From contig SUSV01000003.1 in NCBI GenBank assembly GCA_015063245.1, positions 98,751-162,750 of the forward strand: a stretch of 64,000 bases of DNA. The letters run 5' to 3'. Shown here one piece after another: positions 3,224 through 55,566 of the stretch. Position 1 is the stretch's first letter. The number at the start of each line of letters is the position of its first letter. This DNA comes from Thermoplasmata archaeon (GTDB lineage: Archaea > Thermoplasmatota > Thermoplasmata > Methanomassiliicoccales > Methanomethylophilaceae). Made by a program: the position numbers and the translations under genes. The notes below the pieces were generated by a model. That model was not told the DNA's origin and did not search any database. It saw only the letters and a list, made by a program, of their open reading frames with translations.

Positions 3224-4102
3224 ATGGAAACCGATGTAATCATAATAGGATGCGGACCTGCAGGTCTGCAGGCCGCCATCCACTCCTCCCGCAAGAAGGC
3301 CAGGACGGTCGTTCTCGGGAAGATGGCCAACAGCGCCGCGTACGATACTGACATCGAGAACTACCTCGGTGTCGTCGAGGACGGGAGCACGCTTCTCGCA
3401 CAGGGATTGTCGCAGGCCAAGACGTTCGGTGCCGAGTTCATCGACCAGAACGTCGTATCGGCGAAGCGCGAGGGCGACAGGTTCGTCTTCGAGACCGACG
3501 ACGGCACGGTGATCTCCGCCAAAGCGGTCATCATCGCGACAGGGATCTCCAGGAAGAAGCTGTCTATCCCCGGCGAGTCGGAGCTGTACGGCAAGGGCGT
3601 GAGCTACTGTGCGGTATGCGACTGCAACTTCTACAAGGGACGCAGGGTCGTTCTGGTCGGGAACGAGTCGGAGGCGGCCGCATCGGCCAGGCTGATGACC
3701 TCCTACGCCTCGGAGACGTCGTGGGTCGCATGGGACCTGACGGCCAACGAATCCATCGCGAACAAGGCGCTGGATGCCGGTGTGAGGATGTACAACTCCA
3801 GGCCGAAGTCCATCGACGGGAACGACAAGGTCGAATCCATAACCCTTCAGGACGGCACGGTCATCCCGACGGACGGTGTCTTCATCGAGCTGGGGGCCAA
3901 ATCGGCAGCGGACATAGCCATGGACATCGATGTCATGCCCGAGATGGACGATACGATCAAAGTGGACTCCGGATGCAGGACCGAGGTCCCCGGCGTATTC
4001 GCATGCGGGGACATCACAGGCAAGCCGTGGCAGGTGGCCAAGGCCGTGGGTCAGGGATGCGTCGCGGGCATGAACGCGGCGGACTTCGTCAAGGGACAAT
4101 GA
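3224..4102 (+). CDS. trxB: Thioredoxin reductase-like FAD oxidoreductase
   Basis: IIIGCGPAG FAD motif, GVSYCAVCD redox CxxC, GVFACGD; adjacent to thioredoxin. Confidence 0.88.
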   Translation: METDVIIIGCGPAGLQAAIHSSRKKARTVVLGKMANSAAYDTDIENYLGVVEDGSTLLAQGLSQAKTFGAEFIDQNVVSAKREGDRFVFETDDGTVISAKAVIIATGISRKKLSIPGESELYGKGVSYCAVCDCNFYKGRRVVLVGNESEAAASARLMTSYASETSWVAWDLTANESIANKALDAGVRMYNSRPKSIDGNDKVESITLQDGTVIPTDGVFIELGAKSAADIAMDIDVMPEMDDTIKVDSGCRTEVPGVFACGDITGKPWQVAKAVGQGCVAGMNAADFVKGQ

Positions 4103-4103
4103 G

Positions 4104-4616
4104 ATGACCGTAGACGACCTCATCACAGGGATGCTCAGGGAGGAGGGCGGATTCCAGATTGCCTTCAGGAACATCCTGGAGGATGAGCTCCATATGACCC
4201 TCAACGAGTTCTGTCAGGCCTCCGGGGTCTCTCAGAGCACACTGTACAAGGTGATGGAGGGCGGCAGGGAGCCGAACCTTCGCACGGTCAGACAGGTCGT
4301 CAAGGCCATCAAGATGCTGAGCACCGCTGACGATTCCCGTTTCATAGCGATCATCGCGGCATCCACCGCATTGGAGAACATCCCTCGCACCATCGACATC
4401 AACGGGATGACGGTCCATCTCCGCGAGTATCCCGTATTGACATTGGAGGATGCCATCCTCGCCGCGGTCCGTGCGGAGAGGGACGGTGCACTGGGGCTGG
4501 TGTGCGCGCCGATCGTCGCTCCGACGGTCGAGAAGATCCTCTCGATCCCGGTCTCGAGGGTCATCCCGACGACCAGCATCCAGATTGCCATCGAGCATCT
4601 CACGAAGGCACTCTGA
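4104..4616 (+). CDS. XRE-type HTH transcriptional regulator with C-terminal sensor-like domain
   Basis: MTLNEFCQASGVSQSTLYKVMEGGREPNLRTVRQVV Cro/C1 HTH. Confidence 0.8.
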   Translation: MTVDDLITGMLREEGGFQIAFRNILEDELHMTLNEFCQASGVSQSTLYKVMEGGREPNLRTVRQVVKAIKMLSTADDSRFIAIIAASTALENIPRTIDINGMTVHLREYPVLTLEDAILAAVRAERDGALGLVCAPIVAPTVEKILSIPVSRVIPTTSIQIAIEHLTKAL

Positions 4617-6979: not shown

Positions 6980-9181
6980 TCATCCGTAGAAGGGCAGCTT
7001 GTCCCAGCTGGTGCGGCGCTTGTTGATGTCCTTGCCCATCTTCTCGTAATTTTCGAAGAGGTTCTTGTCGACCGAGGGTCCGACCTTCTTCAGCGCCTTC
7101 TCGAAATGGGCCATCGTGACCTTATCGGAATCATGGTCCTCGCGGTAGGCGGTCAGTCCGGCCTCCCTGCACAATGCCGCCAGGTCCGCCCCTACGTAGC
7201 CGTCCGTCCTTGAAGCTATGGATTCCAGATCGACATCCTTGAGGGGCATTTTACGCGTGTGGACCTTCAGGATGTGGATGCGAGCGGCCTCGTTCGGCTT
7301 CCCGACCAGGACCATCTTGTCGAACCTTCCCGGTCTCAGGAGGGCCGGATCGATCATATCGGGTCTGTTCGTTGCCGCCATGACCATGACGTTGTTGAGG
7401 CTCTCCACTCCGTCCATGGATGTGAGCAGCTGTGCGACGACCTGCTCCCAGGCGTTGGAATCGCTCATTCCGCGTATGGGTGCGATGGAGTCCAATTCAT
7501 CGAAGAATATGATGCAGGGAGCCATCTGCTTGGCCCTCTTGAAGATCTGCCTGATCGCCTTCTCGCTCTCACCGAACCACTTGCTCGCGACCTCCGGTCC
7601 GTTGACCGTGATGAAGTTCGCACCTGCCTCGTTGGCGATAGCTTTTGCAATCAGTGTCTTACCAGTGCCAGGAGGTCCGTATAGCAGCACTCCTCTGGCC
7701 GGTTCGATGCCCAGTCTCTCATAGGATTTGTTCCCCTCCTCGGGGATGAACGCCTCCTCTATCTGAGCGCGGACGTCGTCCAAACCGCCGACATCCTCCC
7801 ATGTAATCTTGGGGATCTCGACGAGGACCTCCCTCATACCGCTGGGCTCGACATCCGCCAGGGCATCCCTGAAGTCGGACATCGATACCTTCATTCCTTC
7901 CAGTATCGCGGCGGGGATCGGTTTGTCGAGGTCGAGGTCCTTCATGTGGCTCCTCACGCATTTCATTGCGGCCTCCCTGCACAGCGCCGCGAGGTCCGCT
8001 CCGACGAAACCCTGGGTCATGCCTGCGAGAGCATCGACCGATACATCCTCTGTGAGAGGCATGCCCCTCATGTGGACGTTCAGGATGTCGAACCTCGCCT
8101 TCCTTCCCGGGATACCTATCTCGATCTCCCTGTCGAACCTTCCCGGTCTCCTCAGGGCGGGATCGATGGAATCCTCCCTGTTGGTGGCAGCGACGACGAT
8201 GACGTTCCCTCTGTCGCCGAGCCCGTCCATGAGGGTGAGAAGCTGCGCGACCACCCTCCTCTCCACCTCTCCGAACACCGAATCCCTGTTCGGTGCGATT
8301 GAATCTATCTCATCGAGGAAGACTATGCTGGGGGCGTTCTCGGATGCCTCCTTGAATATCTCCCTGAGCCTCTCTTCGCTCTGACCATAGTACTGTCCCA
8401 TGATCTCGGGTCCGCGGACCGAGAACAACGTCGCCCCGGACTCGTTGGCGACCGCTTCCGCTATCAGCGTCTTCCCGGTTCCCGGGGGACCGTACAGCAG
8501 GACCCCTCTCGGCGCCCCGATCCCGAGCCTCTCGAACAGCTCCGGATGCTTCAGCGGGAGCTCGATCATCTCCCTGATCCTCTTCAGCTCGTCATCCAGG
8601 CCTCCGACGTCATCGTATGTGATCTGCTTGCCGGAGGAGGATTTCACAACGGTCTTCTGGGCACTGTCCTTCAGGACGATCTCGGTGGATCTGGTGACGA
8701 TGACAGGGCCTTTCGGTACTGTTGAGATGATATTGAATGTCGATCTGTTGCCCATCAGCGCCACATTCGGGACTATGATGTCGATGCCCTCTATCAGAGG
8801 CCTGCCCTGGAGACCGTTCAGGAACACCCCTTCGATGCCCTTCTCGAAGCTGATCTTCTTGCCTTCCGGGATGTTGGGGGCGATAACTATCCTCTTCGCC
8901 TCCTCTGGAGCGCATTTCCTGACGGTGACGTTCTCGTCTATGCTGACGCCGGCATTGGTCCTGGTCAGACCGTCGATCCCGATGAGGCCGTGCCCCTCCT
9001 CGTCGACCGAGCAGGGGAACACCTTGGCCACGACAGTCCTCTTGCCTACGATCTCGATGACATCCCCCAGTTCCAGGCCCAGCTCCTTGCGGGACGCGGT
9101 ATCCATTCTGGCGCGTCCGTACCCGGATTCGTTCTGACGCTGGGGCATCGCTACTTTGAGGACGAGGGAGTCTGTCATCAC
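6980..9181 (-). CDS. cdc48: Cdc48/VCP-like double AAA+ ATPase
   Basis: N domain plus two GPPGTGKT Walker A, DEID/DELD Walker B, RRPGRFD/RPGRFD; C-terminus LPFYG (HbYX). Confidence 0.95.
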   Translation of the reverse strand: MMTDSLVLKVAMPQRQNESGYGRARMDTASRKELGLELGDVIEIVGKRTVVAKVFPCSVDEEGHGLIGIDGLTRTNAGVSIDENVTVRKCAPEEAKRIVIAPNIPEGKKISFEKGIEGVFLNGLQGRPLIEGIDIIVPNVALMGNRSTFNIISTVPKGPVIVTRSTEIVLKDSAQKTVVKSSSGKQITYDDVGGLDDELKRIREMIELPLKHPELFERLGIGAPRGVLLYGPPGTGKTLIAEAVANESGATLFSVRGPEIMGQYYGQSEERLREIFKEASENAPSIVFLDEIDSIAPNRDSVFGEVERRVVAQLLTLMDGLGDRGNVIVVAATNREDSIDPALRRPGRFDREIEIGIPGRKARFDILNVHMRGMPLTEDVSVDALAGMTQGFVGADLAALCREAAMKCVRSHMKDLDLDKPIPAAILEGMKVSMSDFRDALADVEPSGMREVLVEIPKITWEDVGGLDDVRAQIEEAFIPEEGNKSYERLGIEPARGVLLYGPPGTGKTLIAKAIANEAGANFITVNGPEVASKWFGESEKAIRQIFKRAKQMAPCIIFFDELDSIAPIRGMSDSNAWEQVVAQLLTSMDGVESLNNVMVMAATNRPDMIDPALLRPGRFDKMVLVGKPNEAARIHILKVHTRKMPLKDVDLESIASRTDGYVGADLAALCREAGLTAYREDHDSDKVTMAHFEKALKKVGPSVDKNLFENYEKMGKDINKRRTSWDKLPFYG

Positions 9182-31949: not shown

Positions 31950-32225
31950 ATGGAAATAACCGTCGATCCTGAAGTGGAACAGCTCATCAAGAATGAAGGG
32001 TGCGATTACCGCGTCTGCACCGCATGTCTTGGTCCGGCCCTCGTCCCTACATCCGTCAAGGGACCCAAGGAGAGCGATCTCAGGATCGAGGTCGGCGGTC
32101 ATACACTATACATTTCTAGATACGTCGCACGCTACATCTCCAGGGTCACCATCGACATGGTGTACGATGAGGATGAGATCGACGCATGTCCTGCATTCCC
32201 TCCGAGGGGATACAGGTATCAGTGA
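31950..32225 (+). CDS. Small Cys-containing hypothetical protein
   Basis: CDYRVCTACLGPALVP...GPKESD; host-like codon usage. Confidence 0.7.
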   Translation: MEITVDPEVEQLIKNEGCDYRVCTACLGPALVPTSVKGPKESDLRIEVGGHTLYISRYVARYISRVTIDMVYDEDEIDACPAFPPRGYRYQ

Positions 32226-32845
32226 ACAAGTTCGGCAGAATCCGCTGTCTTCTTGGCGAGGGCATCGACGTCGATCTTCTCGCTCATGGCGACGACCTTC
32301 TCGGGGTTGGCCTCGGTGATAGGTCTCGTCGGGACGATGAGGCATCCATTGGTCTCCCTTATCGAGATATCGAAGGTCCCGATGCGTCTGGCAATCTCGA
32401 TTATCTCGTTCTTGTCCATGCCGATCAGGGGCCTTACGACGGGGAAGTCGAGTCCGATGTTCTCCGACTTTATGTTCCTCAGGGTCTGCGATGCGACCTG
32501 TCCCAAAGAATCTCCCATGATGATCCCGTCGGCTCCGAGGTTCTTTGCCAGCTCTCTCGCCGTGCGCTGCATCACGCGTTTGCACATGACGCATTGATAA
32601 TGATAGTCGCAGCCGTCATGGATGGTCTGCTGGTTCTCGCCGTGCTTGGCGATATAGAGCGGGAACTCCCTGCCGGTCACCTCTCTGAGGCGTGCCGCGA
32701 TGTCCTTGACTATCCCGATGGAACGATCGTCGGTGAACGGACGGTTGTCCATATGGAGAAGGATGACCTCCGCGCCCCTCTGACTCATGATGTACGAGGC
32801 GACGGGGGAATCGATCCCGTTTGACATCAGTGAGATCAGCTTCAT
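32219..32845 (-). CDS. thiI: Standalone ThiI catalytic (PP-loop) domain lacking THUMP
   Basis: ISLMSNGIDSPVA PP-loop, CVMCKR CxxC, GDSLGQVASQTL, RPLIGMDKNEI, GC. Confidence 0.85.
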   Translation of the reverse strand: MKLISLMSNGIDSPVASYIMSQRGAEVILLHMDNRPFTDDRSIGIVKDIAARLREVTGREFPLYIAKHGENQQTIHDGCDYHYQCVMCKRVMQRTARELAKNLGADGIIMGDSLGQVASQTLRNIKSENIGLDFPVVRPLIGMDKNEIIEIARRIGTFDISIRETNGCLIVPTRPITEANPEKVVAMSEKIDVDALAKKTADSAELVH

Positions 32846-33411
32846 CTGAGGTCCACATCACCGTAGTCGTCAGCGAGCTTCCTGGGCATCGCATACTTGC
32901 ACTCGGGGCAGTAGAGCCCGTCGCCCTTCTTGCTCCTGACCATCTCGGTCTTGCACTTCCCGCAGTGGGCCCTGATCACTCCGAGGTGGTCGTCCTTGGT
33001 GGTGAGCTGGAGAGCGGGTTTGATCGCTGTGACGCGTGCCCTGATGAAATCTCCCTTCCTGAGCTCCTTGGACACATCGTCGGTGTAGCCTTGGGAGATC
33101 TTTGAAACGTGGATGGTGGCGTAAGTGTCGCCTCCGAGTCTTCTGTCGACGCCTTCCTTGACATAGACATCGGCTGTTGCCATCGTGCTCCTGATGTCTC
33201 CGACGACACCGTATACGATGTCGCCCACTGCCAGGACGTTGGGCGGGTTGGGCGAGATTACCCTTGCTACGCATTCTGCATCATCGAGGACGAGCTCTCC
33301 GACCTGTGAGGCGTAGACCTTTCCGTCCTCTGCGAAAGTTCCCTCGGCGGCCAGGTATTCTTCTTCAGAGGCCACTTCTTCACCGGGGAATACGAACTTG
33401 GAATCTGTCAT
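32842..33411 (-). CDS. csl4: Exosome complex RNA-binding subunit Csl4
   Basis: VFPGEEV, S1 domain, DDHLGVIRAHCGKC...CPEC...RKL Zn ribbon. Confidence 0.92.
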   Translation of the reverse strand: MTDSKFVFPGEEVASEEEYLAAEGTFAEDGKVYASQVGELVLDDAECVARVISPNPPNVLAVGDIVYGVVGDIRSTMATADVYVKEGVDRRLGGDTYATIHVSKISQGYTDDVSKELRKGDFIRARVTAIKPALQLTTKDDHLGVIRAHCGKCKTEMVRSKKGDGLYCPECKYAMPRKLADDYGDVDLR

Positions 33412-33417
33412 GTGAAA

Positions 33418-34011
33418 TCACCTTATGTTGACGACCGCGATGTCGACCGTCTTCTTCATCTTGGTATGGAATGAAAATGTATGAGGGATTTCGTACTTAT
33501 AGATTTTATAATAGGGGACGTCGCGGCCTTTCTTGGCGCAGTAGTCTATGACGAAATCCAGCGTGTTGGCCATATGGATGGAGTATATGCATTCCGAGAG
33601 CTCCATGGCCTTGTCGAGGAACGGCCTGTCCGCATTCCTGTTCTGGCAGCCGAAGGGGGGATTCATGAATATCGTGTCCGCGCCCTCATCCACATCCAGT
33701 ATGTCCGAGCGACGGAACTCCACATCCGCAGACAGTTCCTTCCTGTTCCCTTCCGCCACTCTGAGGGCGGATTCGGATATGTCGAAGCCGATGGCCTGGG
33801 AAGCGCCCAGCATCCACGATCCGATGGTGAACATCCCGGTACCGCATCCGAGGTCCACGACCTTCAGTCCCTCGATGTCCCCCTTGCGGTAGGCATCGAA
33901 CAGGATGTCGGCGGCGGTGACAGCGGGGGTCATGTACTGCTCGAGACTCGCATCGGGATCCTCGAAGTTCCTCACCTTCTGCAAACCCATCTCCAAGTCC
34001 TTCTTCTTCAC
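33418..34011 (-). CDS. METTL5-like SAM-dependent rRNA adenine N6 methyltransferase
   Basis: LEQYMTP, VDLGCGTG, MNPPFG, PHTFSFH; GTG 34011 after GTGAGG. Confidence 0.9.
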   Translation of the reverse strand: MKKKDLEMGLQKVRNFEDPDASLEQYMTPAVTAADILFDAYRKGDIEGLKVVDLGCGTGMFTIGSWMLGASQAIGFDISESALRVAEGNRKELSADVEFRRSDILDVDEGADTIFMNPPFGCQNRNADRPFLDKAMELSECIYSIHMANTLDFVIDYCAKKGRDVPYYKIYKYEIPHTFSFHTKMKKTVDIAVVNIR

Positions 34012-34159
34012 GCCCTCACGCTCCGGTGTCTGCCCTGTCCTAATTCTTCGTAGGATAAAAAATACGATATTCGAATCCAATCTTGTTTGACATCCGACAC
34101 GTTTTTTCTTGCGTTGTACGATGAAAAACAAAGTTTTTACCAAAAATGATTTCGGATAA

Positions 34160-35587
<1,428 letters not shown>

Positions 35588-53586: not shown

Positions 53587-53844
53587 TCAGATCATCGCGA
53601 TGACAGCGCCGGACACGACTATCGCCATGACCAGTCCCGCGATCCCGGCCCAGAACCAATCCTTCTCGGTCACCAGGCCTATGAATGTGACGACAACGGC
53701 GAACAGGGGCGATGATATCAGGATCAGCAGACCCCAGTAGAGAAGGTCGTTATCGTCGGATATCGCAAGCCCGGCTGCTATGAGGACCAATCCTATCACT
53801 ATCCCGATGCGGAGGGTCCATGCCGTTGCCTTGTTCATGTTCAC
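53587..53844 (-). CDS. Small membrane protein (DUF1634-like partner of TauE)
   Basis: LRIG...GLLILISSPLFAVV...EKDW; GTGA overlap with the TauE stop. Confidence 0.7.
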   Translation of the reverse strand: MNMNKATAWTLRIGIVIGLVLIAAGLAISDDNDLLYWGLLILISSPLFAVVVTFIGLVTEKDWFWAGIAGLVMAIVVSGAVIAMI

Positions 53845-54662
53845 AGTATCCCTCCAACACGGAGAAGCACCAGAGCGGACATGAACAGCAGCACCACCGA
53901 GAAGTATCTCCTGAGATGCTTGGTGTTGAGCCTTCTGGCAAGATATGATCCGGCAAGCGCTCCGATGAACGCACCGATCGCCACAGCGCCTGCGAACGCG
54001 AGGTCAAGGTGCCCGCTGAAGAAGTAGGTGATGGCACCCGAGAACGCCGTTATCCCGATCATGTAGCTGCTGGTGGAGCTGGCAGCCTTCATGGGCACAT
54101 GCATGATGAGGTTCATCACAGGGACCTTGATGGCTCCCCCTCCGACACCGGTCATGGATGACATCATTCCGGCGAACACGCATGCCGCTCCTCCGGCGCC
54201 GGTGTTCTGGACCTCATATGATATGTCATCGTCGTTGGCCTCATCCTTATAGGTGAAGCACATGCGCCCTTCTCCGTCCTTGGGTTCCACGACCTTCTCG
54301 GGGCTCAGGATCATCCTCACGGCGCTGTAGATCATCACTGCGCAGAAGATGAGGCTGAGGATCCAATCCTCCATGTATCCCGCTATTATCGCCCCGGCTA
54401 TCGCTCCTATCGTCGTGGTCACCTCGAGAAGCAACCCAAGACGAACGTTCGCCAATCCTTTCTCTATGAAGACGCTCGACGCCCCCACAGAACCGGCCAC
54501 GATCCCGACAAGGCTGACAGCGGCAGCGTCCGCTGGGGCCAAGCCGAACACGAGCATCAGCACGGGGACGAAGATCACTCCGCCTCCGAGACCGAACAGT
54601 GCTCCCATGATCCCGGCTCCCGCACCGAGGGCTATCAGACCGATAAGGATCAGGATCTCCAT
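53841..54662 (-). CDS. TauE/SafE (TSUP) family transporter
   Basis: GALFGLGGGVIFVP, GVGGGAIKVP...PMKAASSTS repeats; real start ATG 54662. Confidence 0.9.
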   Translation of the reverse strand: MEILILIGLIALGAGAGIMGALFGLGGGVIFVPVLMLVFGLAPADAAAVSLVGIVAGSVGASSVFIEKGLANVRLGLLLEVTTTIGAIAGAIIAGYMEDWILSLIFCAVMIYSAVRMILSPEKVVEPKDGEGRMCFTYKDEANDDDISYEVQNTGAGGAACVFAGMMSSMTGVGGGAIKVPVMNLIMHVPMKAASSTSSYMIGITAFSGAITYFFSGHLDLAFAGAVAIGAFIGALAGSYLARRLNTKHLRRYFSVVLLFMSALVLLRVGGIL

Positions 54663-54720: not shown

Positions 54721-55566
54721 GTGGCCATATTATTGCTAAGATACGCTGAGATCGGTCTCAAGAGCACACCGGTCCGCAGGAGATTCGAGAGCACTCTGAA
54801 GGACAATCTCCTCAACATGCTGATGGAGGACGGGGTCGAAGCGCTCGTCACCAACAAAGGTGCCAGGTTCTATGTCGAGGCCACTGACATTGATGCTGCG
54901 GCGAGATCCATCAGGAAGGTGTTCGGCATCGCATCTTTCTCCGTTGCGGAGGAATGCACATCGAAGATGGAGGATATGTGCGCTGTCGCAGCAGAGTATT
55001 CCCTCTCTAGGTTGAAGGAGGGGCAGTCCTTCGCGGTGAAGGCACGCAGGGAAGGTTCCCAGGGCTATACGAGTCTCGACATGGGACGTGAGATCGGTTC
55101 GGCGATATTCCTTGCAAACGAGGATAAAGGCGTCAAGGTGGATCTTACAGATCCCGAGGTCACTTTCTATGCGGAGGCCCGCGACAACCGTGCATTCATC
55201 TTCCAGGAGTATGTCAAGTGCCATGCAGGTCTGCCTGTGGGGACTCAGGGGAAGGTCATCGCCACAATCGATGGTTCCGACAGGTCCCTGGTATCCGCAT
55301 GGCTGATGATGAAGCGCGGATGCAGGATCATGGTGGAGGGCGACGGCGATTATTCCCCTCTGAAGCAGTACGACACGTATCTGAGGCCCTTCGATCCCGA
55401 CAGGGACGACAAGAGGAGGATACTCGGTCACGTCATGGGGACCGATCTCGAAGGGATAAAGGACGTGGACGTCTCCAAGTACGACATACCCGTGTTCTTC
55501 CCGACCATCGGCATGACCGATGACGAGGTCTCGGCCCTTGCCGAGATCATCCGCAGCGGCCTCTGA
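54721..55566 (+). CDS. ThiI N-terminal half: NFLD plus THUMP with degenerate PP-loop
   Basis: LLRYAEIGLKS...RRFESTL..N, KVFGIASFS, SFAVKARR, VDLTDPEV, GLPVGTQGKV, then TIDGSDRS instead of SGGxDS; GTG 54721. Confidence 0.85.
   Translation: MAILLLRYAEIGLKSTPVRRRFESTLKDNLLNMLMEDGVEALVTNKGARFYVEATDIDAAARSIRKVFGIASFSVAEECTSKMEDMCAVAAEYSLSRLKEGQSFAVKARREGSQGYTSLDMGREIGSAIFLANEDKGVKVDLTDPEVTFYAEARDNRAFIFQEYVKCHAGLPVGTQGKVIATIDGSDRSLVSAWLMMKRGCRIMVEGDGDYSPLKQYDTYLRPFDPDRDDKRRILGHVMGTDLEGIKDVDVSKYDIPVFFPTIGMTDDEVSALAEIIRSGL

Follow-up and report, generated by a model that had tools for sequence, protein, structure and literature searches.

A predicted two-subunit tRNA 4-thiouridine synthase in Methanomassiliicoccales, with a stand-alone catalytic PP-loop protein and a THUMP partner bearing a degenerate PP-loop domain

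A tRNA 4-thiouridine (s4U) synthase made up of two different subunits appears to be encoded within a 64,000-nucleotide stretch of DNA from a Thermoplasmata archaeon of the Methanomassiliicoccales, family Methanomethylophilaceae (NCBI GenBank assembly GCA_015063245.1, contig SUSV01000003.1, positions 98,751 to 162,750; hereafter ‘the window’, with positions counted from its first nucleotide). One putative subunit is a 208-residue protein which consists of little more than a PP-loop domain (32219..32845, minus strand). The other, here the ‘partner’, is a 281-residue protein with a ferredoxin-like domain at its N-terminus (NFLD), a THUMP domain, and a degenerate PP-loop domain (54721..55566, plus strand). 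In the textbook view, ThiI/TtuI is a single-chain, NFLD–THUMP–PP-loop enzyme that forms homodimers. What is predicted here, by contrast, is an obligate and asymmetric heterodimer, a reading to which, based as it is on sequence, we assign a probability of roughly 0.7. The pairing of the catalytic with the THUMP protein is argued for by natural fusions, by gene adjacency, by co-occurrence, and by transcript contigs. That the pair should be an obligate heterodimer is then the best reading since ThiI homodimers already work in trans.

The 208-residue protein begins with an ATG and, as indicated by Pfam and by its homologues, is a stand-alone ThiI/TtuI PP-loop ATP-pyrophosphatase (PPase) domain, which we predict to be the catalytic subunit. 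It matches Pfam ThiI (PF02568) with an E of 2.2e-59, residues 3 to 192 aligning on positions 6 to 196 of a 197-position profile. Of the 373 positions of the TIGR00342 ThiI model it aligns with 174 to 367, scoring 198.3 against a cut-off of 264.5. Among solved structures it matches the PPase domains of the ThiI proteins of Bacillus anthracis (2C5S, 189–387, E 3.6e-35) and Thermotoga maritima (4KR6, 176–368, E 4e-29). Only seven residues precede the PP-loop, that is, the NFLD and THUMP domains are not in the same polypeptide, nor are they encoded upstream of this open reading frame (ORF), where the DNA is that of an intact csl4 gene. The best NCBIfam match is to PRK08349 (6.2e-60, residues 1–191 on positions 1–192 of 198), at 202.5 bits versus a cut-off of 251; the window protein has the same one-domain architecture but, to go by these scores, is a more distant branch. 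It has roughly 120 homologues, which are 69–99% identical and nearly all 201–213 residues long; the close ones, of about 207–208 residues, come from Methanomethylophilaceae as well as from other Thermoplasmata.

The motifs of the PPase domain are as follows. The PP-loop, an ATP-binding motif of the form SxGxDS, reads SNGIDS (residues 8–13; 32807..32824, minus strand), with S8, G10, D12, and S13 invariant and the loop's second position variable over an alignment of 55 stand-alone homologues. CVMC (32582..32593, minus strand) supplies Cys85 and Cys88, the CxxC part of the CxxC+C set of Fe-S ligands of archaeal TtuI (PMC9825150). When 1.8 billion cluster representatives were searched exhaustively, some 60 stand-alone clusters were among the best 150 matches, and of these 58 of 60 have the CxxC, spaced as here 77 residues past the PP-loop; the same spacing is seen with most archaeal full-length forms. 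Residues 111–121, GDSLGQVASQT (32483..32515, minus strand), correspond to the ATP-phosphate-binding loop at the dimer interface, i.e., to the ‘DI-loop’ of T. maritima ThiI (PMC4041423), and within the stand-alone homologues A118, S119, Q120, and T121 are invariant, with Q116 and V117 nearly so. RPLIGMDK follows at residues 138–145. Lastly, Cys168 (in NGC; 32342..32344, minus strand) is aligned, in T. maritima ThiI, with the catalytic Cys344, is nearly invariant among stand-alone homologues, and is the putative third Fe-S ligand. The CxxC plus distal cysteine which define the Fe-S subclass of archaeal TtuI (PMC9825150) are present, that is, as Cys85, Cys88, and Cys168. In Methanococcus maripaludis and in Pyrococcus furiosus TtuI this CxxC+C binds a [4Fe-4S] cluster which is essential (PMC9825150). 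The triad therefore would place the catalytic subunit within the archaeal class that needs a [4Fe-4S] cluster for sulfuration, and the 208-residue protein probably thiolates U8 of tRNA using such a cluster.

The partner, which starts with GTG, is predicted to be the tRNA-binding subunit and is similar to PH1313 of Pyrococcus horikoshii, as seen with Pfam, with a match to the structure 1VBK, and with an AlphaFold2 (AF2) model. Its NFLD (54730..54942, plus strand; ThiI_fer, 5.4e-14) includes the loop EIGLKS. Lys14 of the partner corresponds to Lys17 of T. maritima ThiI and is nearly invariant among the partner's orthologues. The THUMP domain (54964..55203, plus strand; 7.1e-12) is of a kind which in ThiI acts as a ruler for acceptor stem and 3'-CCA (PMC4041423). 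There then follows a pseudo-PPase domain (55240..55551, plus strand; Pfam, hhalign), which has DGSDRS where the PP-loop should be. This domain matches the Pfam ThiI PPase profile over its first 31 positions only, has no CxxC, and has a QVASQT loop that has decayed to MGTDLEGIKDV. The chain stops after an RPLIG-like strand and a helix, so that there is no catalytic cysteine either. Comparison of the partner family with the short PP family by hhalign aligned the partner's tail (233–277) with the GDSLGQVASQT...RPLIGxDK region, a weak match (E 1e-4, probability 57%) which recovered only the C-terminal 44 columns. Homology of the pseudo-PPase to PPase domains is nonetheless indicated, because this tail match, the N-terminal Pfam match, and a match in fold are found together. 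As to fold, the best solved-structure match by sequence is 1VBK, i.e., PH1313 (E 7e-21, about 25% identity). The AF2 model (pLDDT, the predicted local distance difference test, 90.1; predicted TM score, pTM, 0.85) likewise has 1VBK as its top Foldseek match (TM 0.82/0.75, E 5e-25), with structures of full-length ThiI ranking lower.

This degeneration is a shared property of the family rather than a peculiarity of one gene. Genome contigs were scanned across genomes, with the best 80 loci from each scan, ranked by similarity, making up the loci considered here and below. At least 80 orthologues of the partner exist in Methanomassiliicoccales, nearly all of them 274–290 residues long (two are cut by contig ends and two are of about 310 residues). 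The PP-loop is lost in 80 of the 80 listed, with D-DDRG or something similar at the SGGxDS position. The helix after the lost PP-loop, SAWLMMKRGC, by contrast is all but fixed, with W194 through C201 invariant and S192 and A193 nearly so. Judged by these features, the partner is an NFLD, a THUMP domain, and a shortened, catalytically dead PPase domain, which is the architecture of PH1313. A preliminary description of the window had posited a ‘split ThiI’, with a catalytic half that starts directly at its PP-loop and with a THUMP protein at 54721 as its candidate partner. The catalytic half is as had been described, i.e., a THUMP-less, 208-residue ORF with SNGIDS, CVMC, and a distal GC, as ORF, Pfam match, and motif positions all confirm, and the gene at 54721 is indeed a genuine THUMP ORF. 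That protein also carries an NFLD and a pseudo-PPase, however, as does PH1313, so that, while one may fairly speak of a split ThiI, the division is not a clean one running between the THUMP domain and the PP-loop.

What ties these two genes together? When the canonical, 381-residue ThiI of Thermococcus kodakarensis is compared with the window there are two matches only, its residues 178–363 with the 208-residue gene and its residues 4–208 with the gene at 54721; within the window, no other genes match canonical ThiI. The two also exist as natural fusions. Seven protein clusters of 494–529 residues, from Ca. Methanoliparum and Ca. Methanolliviera, have NFLD, THUMP, pseudo-PP, and PP (with CxxC+C) in this order in one chain. 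The N-terminal 300 residues of a Methanoliparia fusion are 30% identical to the partner over 3–278 (E 3e-36), and the C-terminal 207 residues are 40% identical to the 208-residue protein over 2–207 (E 1e-50). One fusion sequence, P0273, occurs unchanged on 16 contigs, one of them longer than 1 Mb, and GTDB genomes of Methanolliviera have the fusion too (L290, L292). Within Methanomassiliicoccales itself, the metagenome-assembled genome SUTA01 carries an unlinked pair (L114, L164) as well as another copy in which the two are fused in a single frame (L175, ORF 7257..8789). This fused paralogue has an in-frame TAG at 7245–7247, where its orthologues have Gly (EDGVEA), which could be pyrrolysine or read-through, this being a pyrrolysine-using order, or could be a sequencing error or a sign of a pseudogene.

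Adjacency without fusion is found as well. On a Methanogranum chromosome (L124) paralogues of the PP and the THUMP gene diverge from each other at a distance of 170 bp; adjoining them is a 257-residue ORF with a PP-loop-like SGGFDS (3345–4118), for which there is no Pfam match at E 0.001. In Thermococcus sp. T2 (L256) a 310-residue, PH1313-type gene overlaps by 4 nt with a 198-residue stand-alone PP gene in which all motifs are present. In a Woesearchaeon (L204, 4863–8585) there is a cluster consisting of a 275-residue THUMP–pseudo-PP protein, a 387-residue class-V aminotransferase that resembles cysteine desulfurases (Aminotran_5, 4.3e-93), and a 208-residue PP gene. All three of the components expected for s4U synthesis are together in that cluster. 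Fusion to, or adjacency with, a THUMP–pseudo-PP protein recurs across five lineages. As to co-occurrence, the partner is present, among the THUMP loci listed, in 10 of the 11 closest PP-bearing assemblies, one of these ten being a complete chromosome on which the two genes are about 290 kb apart. In a faecal metatranscriptome, furthermore, there is a 100%-identical contig over thiI (as the 208-residue protein's gene is called here) and csl4, at a depth of 8.35, plus a gene-sized, 100%-identical contig over the THUMP gene, at a comparable depth of 13.8, with the adjacent antiporter gene at depth 0. These are assembled contigs, for which DNA carry-over is possible, and the evidence accordingly is modest. 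Taken together, fusions, adjacency, co-occurrence, and transcript contigs support the earlier suggestion that a THUMP-less catalytic half works with the protein from 54721.

These same observations bear on two other explanations. The first is that one or both genes are decaying, functionless remnants, as a dead catalytic domain in the partner might lead one to suspect. Conservation of length and motifs over about 120 PP homologues and at least 80 THUMP orthologues, and the presence of both genes in the metatranscriptome, make this the least credible of the possibilities considered. The second is that the 208-residue protein is a homodimeric thiolase which has no THUMP partner, and which recognizes tRNA in some other way or has a non-tRNA substrate, with the protein from 54721 then having an unrelated role. 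PP-loop tRNA thiolases that lack a THUMP domain do exist, i.e., MnmA, TtuA, and NcsA. These three are named as well in PMC9825150. The short PP gene of Pyrococcus, in addition, is not near a THUMP gene, and one homologue, P0125, is fused to a ThiS/MoaD-like domain instead. Against such independence are the fusion and adjacency with THUMP–pseudo-PP proteins in the five lineages, and also the partner's own history: Its catalytic motifs are all gone while its conservation is strong, from which it would follow that it needs a catalytic partner. An unpartnered thiolase we consequently regard as improbable.

The stand-alone arrangement is widespread. It is the short form which is present in 32 of the 32 Methanomassiliicoccales PP loci listed, these representing one genome per species; outside of that order nearly every listed match, from bacteria and from DPANN archaea, has a THUMP domain in the same ORF. 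Stand-alone PP-loop ThiI is also found, however, in other Thermoplasmata, in Theionarchaea, in some DPANN archaea, and throughout Thermococcales, so this genome is not alone in having such an arrangement. The Thermococcales proteins often are named ‘ThiI-related protein’, ‘hypothetical’, or 7-cyano-7-deazaguanine synthase (QueC), e.g., P0436, P0439, P0443, P0473, and P0490, with the QueC naming looking like mis-annotation since the strong match is to ThiI PF02568. A gene for a DUF998 membrane protein always precedes the Thermococcales stand-alone PP gene (L293, L294, L295). In T. kodakarensis (L294, 2249–4576), for instance, the order is 381-residue ThiI, DUF998, 191-residue PP, with the 381-residue ThiI lacking the distal cysteine (EDEIPF) and the short, 191-residue protein having it.

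It is within Thermococcales that an origin for the arrangement may be glimpsed. There the THUMP-linked copy displays a graded decay, always beside an intact stand-alone PP gene. The stages range from a 381-residue ThiI missing only the distal cysteine (T. kodakarensis and also L242), through a D-to-N change in the PP-loop (L253) and a decay of both CxxC and QVASQT (T. paralvinellae, L250), to the short, PH1313-type form (L256). What this series suggests is that the PPase domain was duplicated and that its THUMP-linked copy then decayed, which, along with fusion or fission varying by lineage, is the likely origin of the pair. In a tree of PP domains built by the unweighted pair group method with arithmetic mean, which is not a proper phylogeny and is suggestive only, most short forms and the PP domains of the fusions fall into one block. 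Certain other candidate architectures were set aside. P0127 and P0132, with two PP stretches each, are bacterial ThiI proteins parts of which are duplicated, seemingly as artefacts of assembly, and most matches of middling length (230–345 residues) are N-terminally truncated fragments of full-length ThiI.

A number of findings nevertheless weigh against the obligate heterodimer. The two genes are 22 kb apart in the window and are unlinked in most Methanomassiliicoccales. An AF2 model of the natural fusion P0273, made from 7 sequences, came out with pLDDT 62.7 and pTM 0.55, which is too poor for judging domain packing. The TtuI of P. furiosus has been reported to be active on its own in vitro (PMC9825150). 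Thermococcales have the stand-alone PP protein alongside the nearly intact, 381-residue ThiI, and in Pyrococcus the stand-alone PP gene is linked only to the DUF998 membrane gene; these last two points imply that the short protein could do more than replace a missing domain. The P. horikoshii stand-alone PP gene has no THUMP gene within 4 kb. A scan with PH1313 residues did not have P. horikoshii itself among the matches listed, the best match being 71% identical.

Out of this comes a further alternative, which is that a canonical ThiI encoded elsewhere makes s4U8, with the heterodimer being an accessory that serves another tRNA site, such as U9, or some other RNA. Thermococcales do carry the near-canonical, 381-residue ThiI close to the stand-alone PP gene, and activity of P. 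furiosus TtuI alone in vitro would fit as well. So too would the two THUMP paralogues, or two pairs, that are found in some Methanomassiliicoccales genomes (OY780938.1: L117, L124; SUTA01: L114, L164, L175), and s4U9 has been reported in Thermoplasma acidophilum (PMC9825150). In our three genome scans, though, all listed ThiI-type matches from Methanomassiliicoccales and Thermoplasmata are either short PP proteins or pseudo-PP THUMP proteins, with none canonical, which is weak evidence, and the THUMP ruler architecture is unchanged. An accessory role thus strikes us as rather unlikely.

How would the predicted heterodimer work? Structures of T. maritima ThiI with RNA indicate that the functional unit is a homodimer which is held together mainly by PPase domains, with the NFLD and THUMP domains of one subunit binding acceptor stem and CCA end (PMC4041423). 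Canonical ThiI, that is, works in trans, tRNA being bound by one subunit but modified by the other, and with Lys17 of the NFLD loop contacting tRNA at the other subunit's active site (PMC4041423). Given an NFLD, a THUMP domain, Lys14, and a PPase-like scaffold, and no catalytic residues, the partner looks like a dedicated tRNA-holding half, for which we propose the 208-residue protein as the matching, chemistry-performing half. The partner's degenerate PP-loop domain would pair with the active PP-loop domain much as the two PPase domains do in the canonical ThiI homodimer. The dead domain in this way would supply the dimer interface, with NFLD and THUMP holding the tRNA. The 208-residue subunit then would bind ATP via its PP-loop and adenylate O4 of U8, after which a [4Fe-4S] cluster with Cys85, Cys88, and Cys168 as its ligands would serve in replacing O4 by sulfur. 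The resulting asymmetric dimer would possess one tRNA site and one active site.

Two genes upstream of thiI in the window form an operon with it. The first gene of this operon (33418..33990, minus strand) encodes, by domain match, a class-I S-adenosylmethionine-dependent methyltransferase of 190 residues, the ‘METTL5-like’ gene of the preliminary description. A mechanically called ORF for this gene, 33418–34296 on the minus strand, has 292 residues from a TTG, but it is near an internal Met, at 33990, that the domain begins, and this Met is the likely true start; the long N-terminal extension, which would overlap the start region of a divergent, glutamate-dehydrogenase-like gene, is probably not translated. 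The methyltransferase ORF ends 6 nt ahead of csl4 (32842..33411, minus strand), which encodes the exosome cap subunit (NCBIfam Csl4 equivalog, 178.9 bits, cut-off 90) and is relevant here as operon context only. The TGA stop of csl4 and the ATG of thiI in turn overlap as ATGA. The translational coupling of thiI behind these two genes, as previously put forward, accordingly holds.

It might be asked whether these operon neighbors are the actual functional partners, with the PP-loop protein acting with Csl4, which has S1 and zinc-ribbon RNA-binding domains, or with the methyltransferase on rRNA or exosome substrates. There is the translational coupling to csl4 to consider, as well as conservation of the methyltransferase–csl4–thiI order across Methanomassiliicoccales, seen in 32 of the 32 loci listed (one genome per species). 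The linkage is lineage-specific, however, with csl4 in other Thermoplasmata being about 2.3 kb away or absent from the locus, which renders Csl4 unlikely as a partner. In Thermococcales the neighbor is DUF998, and no fusion with Csl4 was seen among the homologues. We therefore think it very improbable that an operon neighbor, as opposed to the THUMP protein, is the partner.

Convergent to thiI is orf91 (31950..32225, plus strand), which encodes 91 residues including two invariant cysteines, Cys26 and Cys80, has the motif DYRVCTACxGP, and is kept in most of the Methanomassiliicoccales loci listed. It matches only A-type Fe-S carriers (SufA/IscA), and these weakly, with NCBIfam at E 0.024 and with Pfam Fe-S_biosyn in 4 of 14 orthologues. 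Its product may serve the thiolase as an accessory for Fe-S or sulfur. Next to the THUMP gene, divergent from it and 58 bp away, is a gene for a TauE/SafE-family membrane permease (53841–54662, minus strand). A TauE/SafE homologue is found upstream and on the opposite strand in 68 of the 80 Methanomassiliicoccales THUMP loci listed, from directly adjacent to some 1.4 kb off, and this neighbor could represent a link to sulfur-anion transport. As for P0125, this is a metagenomic protein of 294 residues in which a ThiS/MoaD-like domain ending in PPVSGG (ThiS, 2.6e-15) is fused N-terminally to a stand-alone ThiI PP domain with CxxC (ThiI, 2.4e-57). It comes from one cluster, itself of a single member, and hints at a ubiquitin-like sulfur carrier that feeds the PP enzyme in some lineage.

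Such neighbors and fusions allow for a broader, more speculative view, which is that different adaptors recruit, as a common catalytic cassette, the bare PP-loop/Fe-S subunit, with ThiI being in effect a modular, adaptor-programmed thiolase. Two THUMP–pseudo-PP paralogues in one genome then would direct the subunit to different tRNA positions, e.g., U8 and U9. Sulfur might be supplied via a ThiS/MoaD-like domain such as that of P0125, or with the aid of membrane-protein neighbors, i.e., TauE/SafE-like for the THUMP gene here or DUF998 for the Thermococcales PP gene. This too we consider doubtful, and to about the same degree as an accessory role.

Both of these protein families are already in databases; what is new is the proposed functional pairing along with the pseudo-enzyme subunit. 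A literature search found no description of a two-subunit ThiI, nor did it find a paper combining ThiI and Methanomassiliicoccales. If the heterodimer reading is true, then it would give a function to PH1313, an orphan structure that was deposited in 2005. It would also correct a widespread mis-annotation, that of the catalytic subunit as ‘QueC’ or ‘hypothetical’ and of the adaptor as ‘ThiI’. Furthermore, there would be a naturally occurring system, with genetically separable parts, in which to study the trans mechanism that the T. maritima crystal structure had suggested, and with its one tRNA site and one active site this system should be easier to dissect than is a symmetric dimer. Lastly, it would be a prokaryotic example of a route from active homodimer to active/dead heterodimer that is known from eukaryotic tRNA-modifying enzymes.

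Among known systems, the closest is the canonical ThiI/TtuI homodimer, represented by T. maritima ThiI (4KR6) and, for the Fe-S class, by MMP1354 of M. maripaludis. With these the 208-residue protein shares its PPase domain, its PP-loop, its interface loop, and its catalytic cysteine, plus the CxxC+C of the archaeal Fe-S class, and the NFLD–THUMP module is likewise the same. The difference is that here two gene products divide the tRNA-binding module and the active site between them, and that the THUMP-bearing chain has an inactive PPase domain, so that the dimer would have one active site rather than two. The partner in turn resembles P. horikoshii PH1313 (1VBK) in having an NFLD, a THUMP domain, and a small, PPase-like domain without a PP-loop, though identity is only about 25%. 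PH1313 has been treated as a ‘truncated form’ in the 2022 TtuI paper (PMC9825150). According to a 2023 review its activity is unconfirmed, and the division of labor among the multiple ThiI homologues which Pyrococcus encodes is not known (PMC9957541). The 208-residue protein for its part is like the Thermococcales stand-alone ‘ThiI-related protein’ (PRK08349, 191–201 residues), also a single domain starting from the PP-loop and possessing CxxC+C, the gene for which in some Thermococcus genomes adjoins a THUMP-bearing ThiI paralogue. Gene contexts differ, being a csl4 operon for the window gene versus DUF998 for that of Thermococcales.

There are parallels in other tRNA-modifying systems as well. 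In both Ncs6–Ncs2 (Ctu1–Ctu2) and ADAT2–ADAT3 an active tRNA-modifying subunit is joined by a paralogue which lacks catalytic residues and aids in tRNA binding, with a homodimeric ancestor. These differ from the ThiI pair in belonging to other families, in acting on other tRNA positions, and in being eukaryotic. Tan1/THUMPD1 with Kre33/NAT10 is similar from a different perspective, that is, as a THUMP protein serving as trans tRNA adaptor for a catalytic protein which itself is THUMP-less (PMC9957541). There, however, the chemistry is acetylation, and the adaptor is without a pseudo-catalytic domain.

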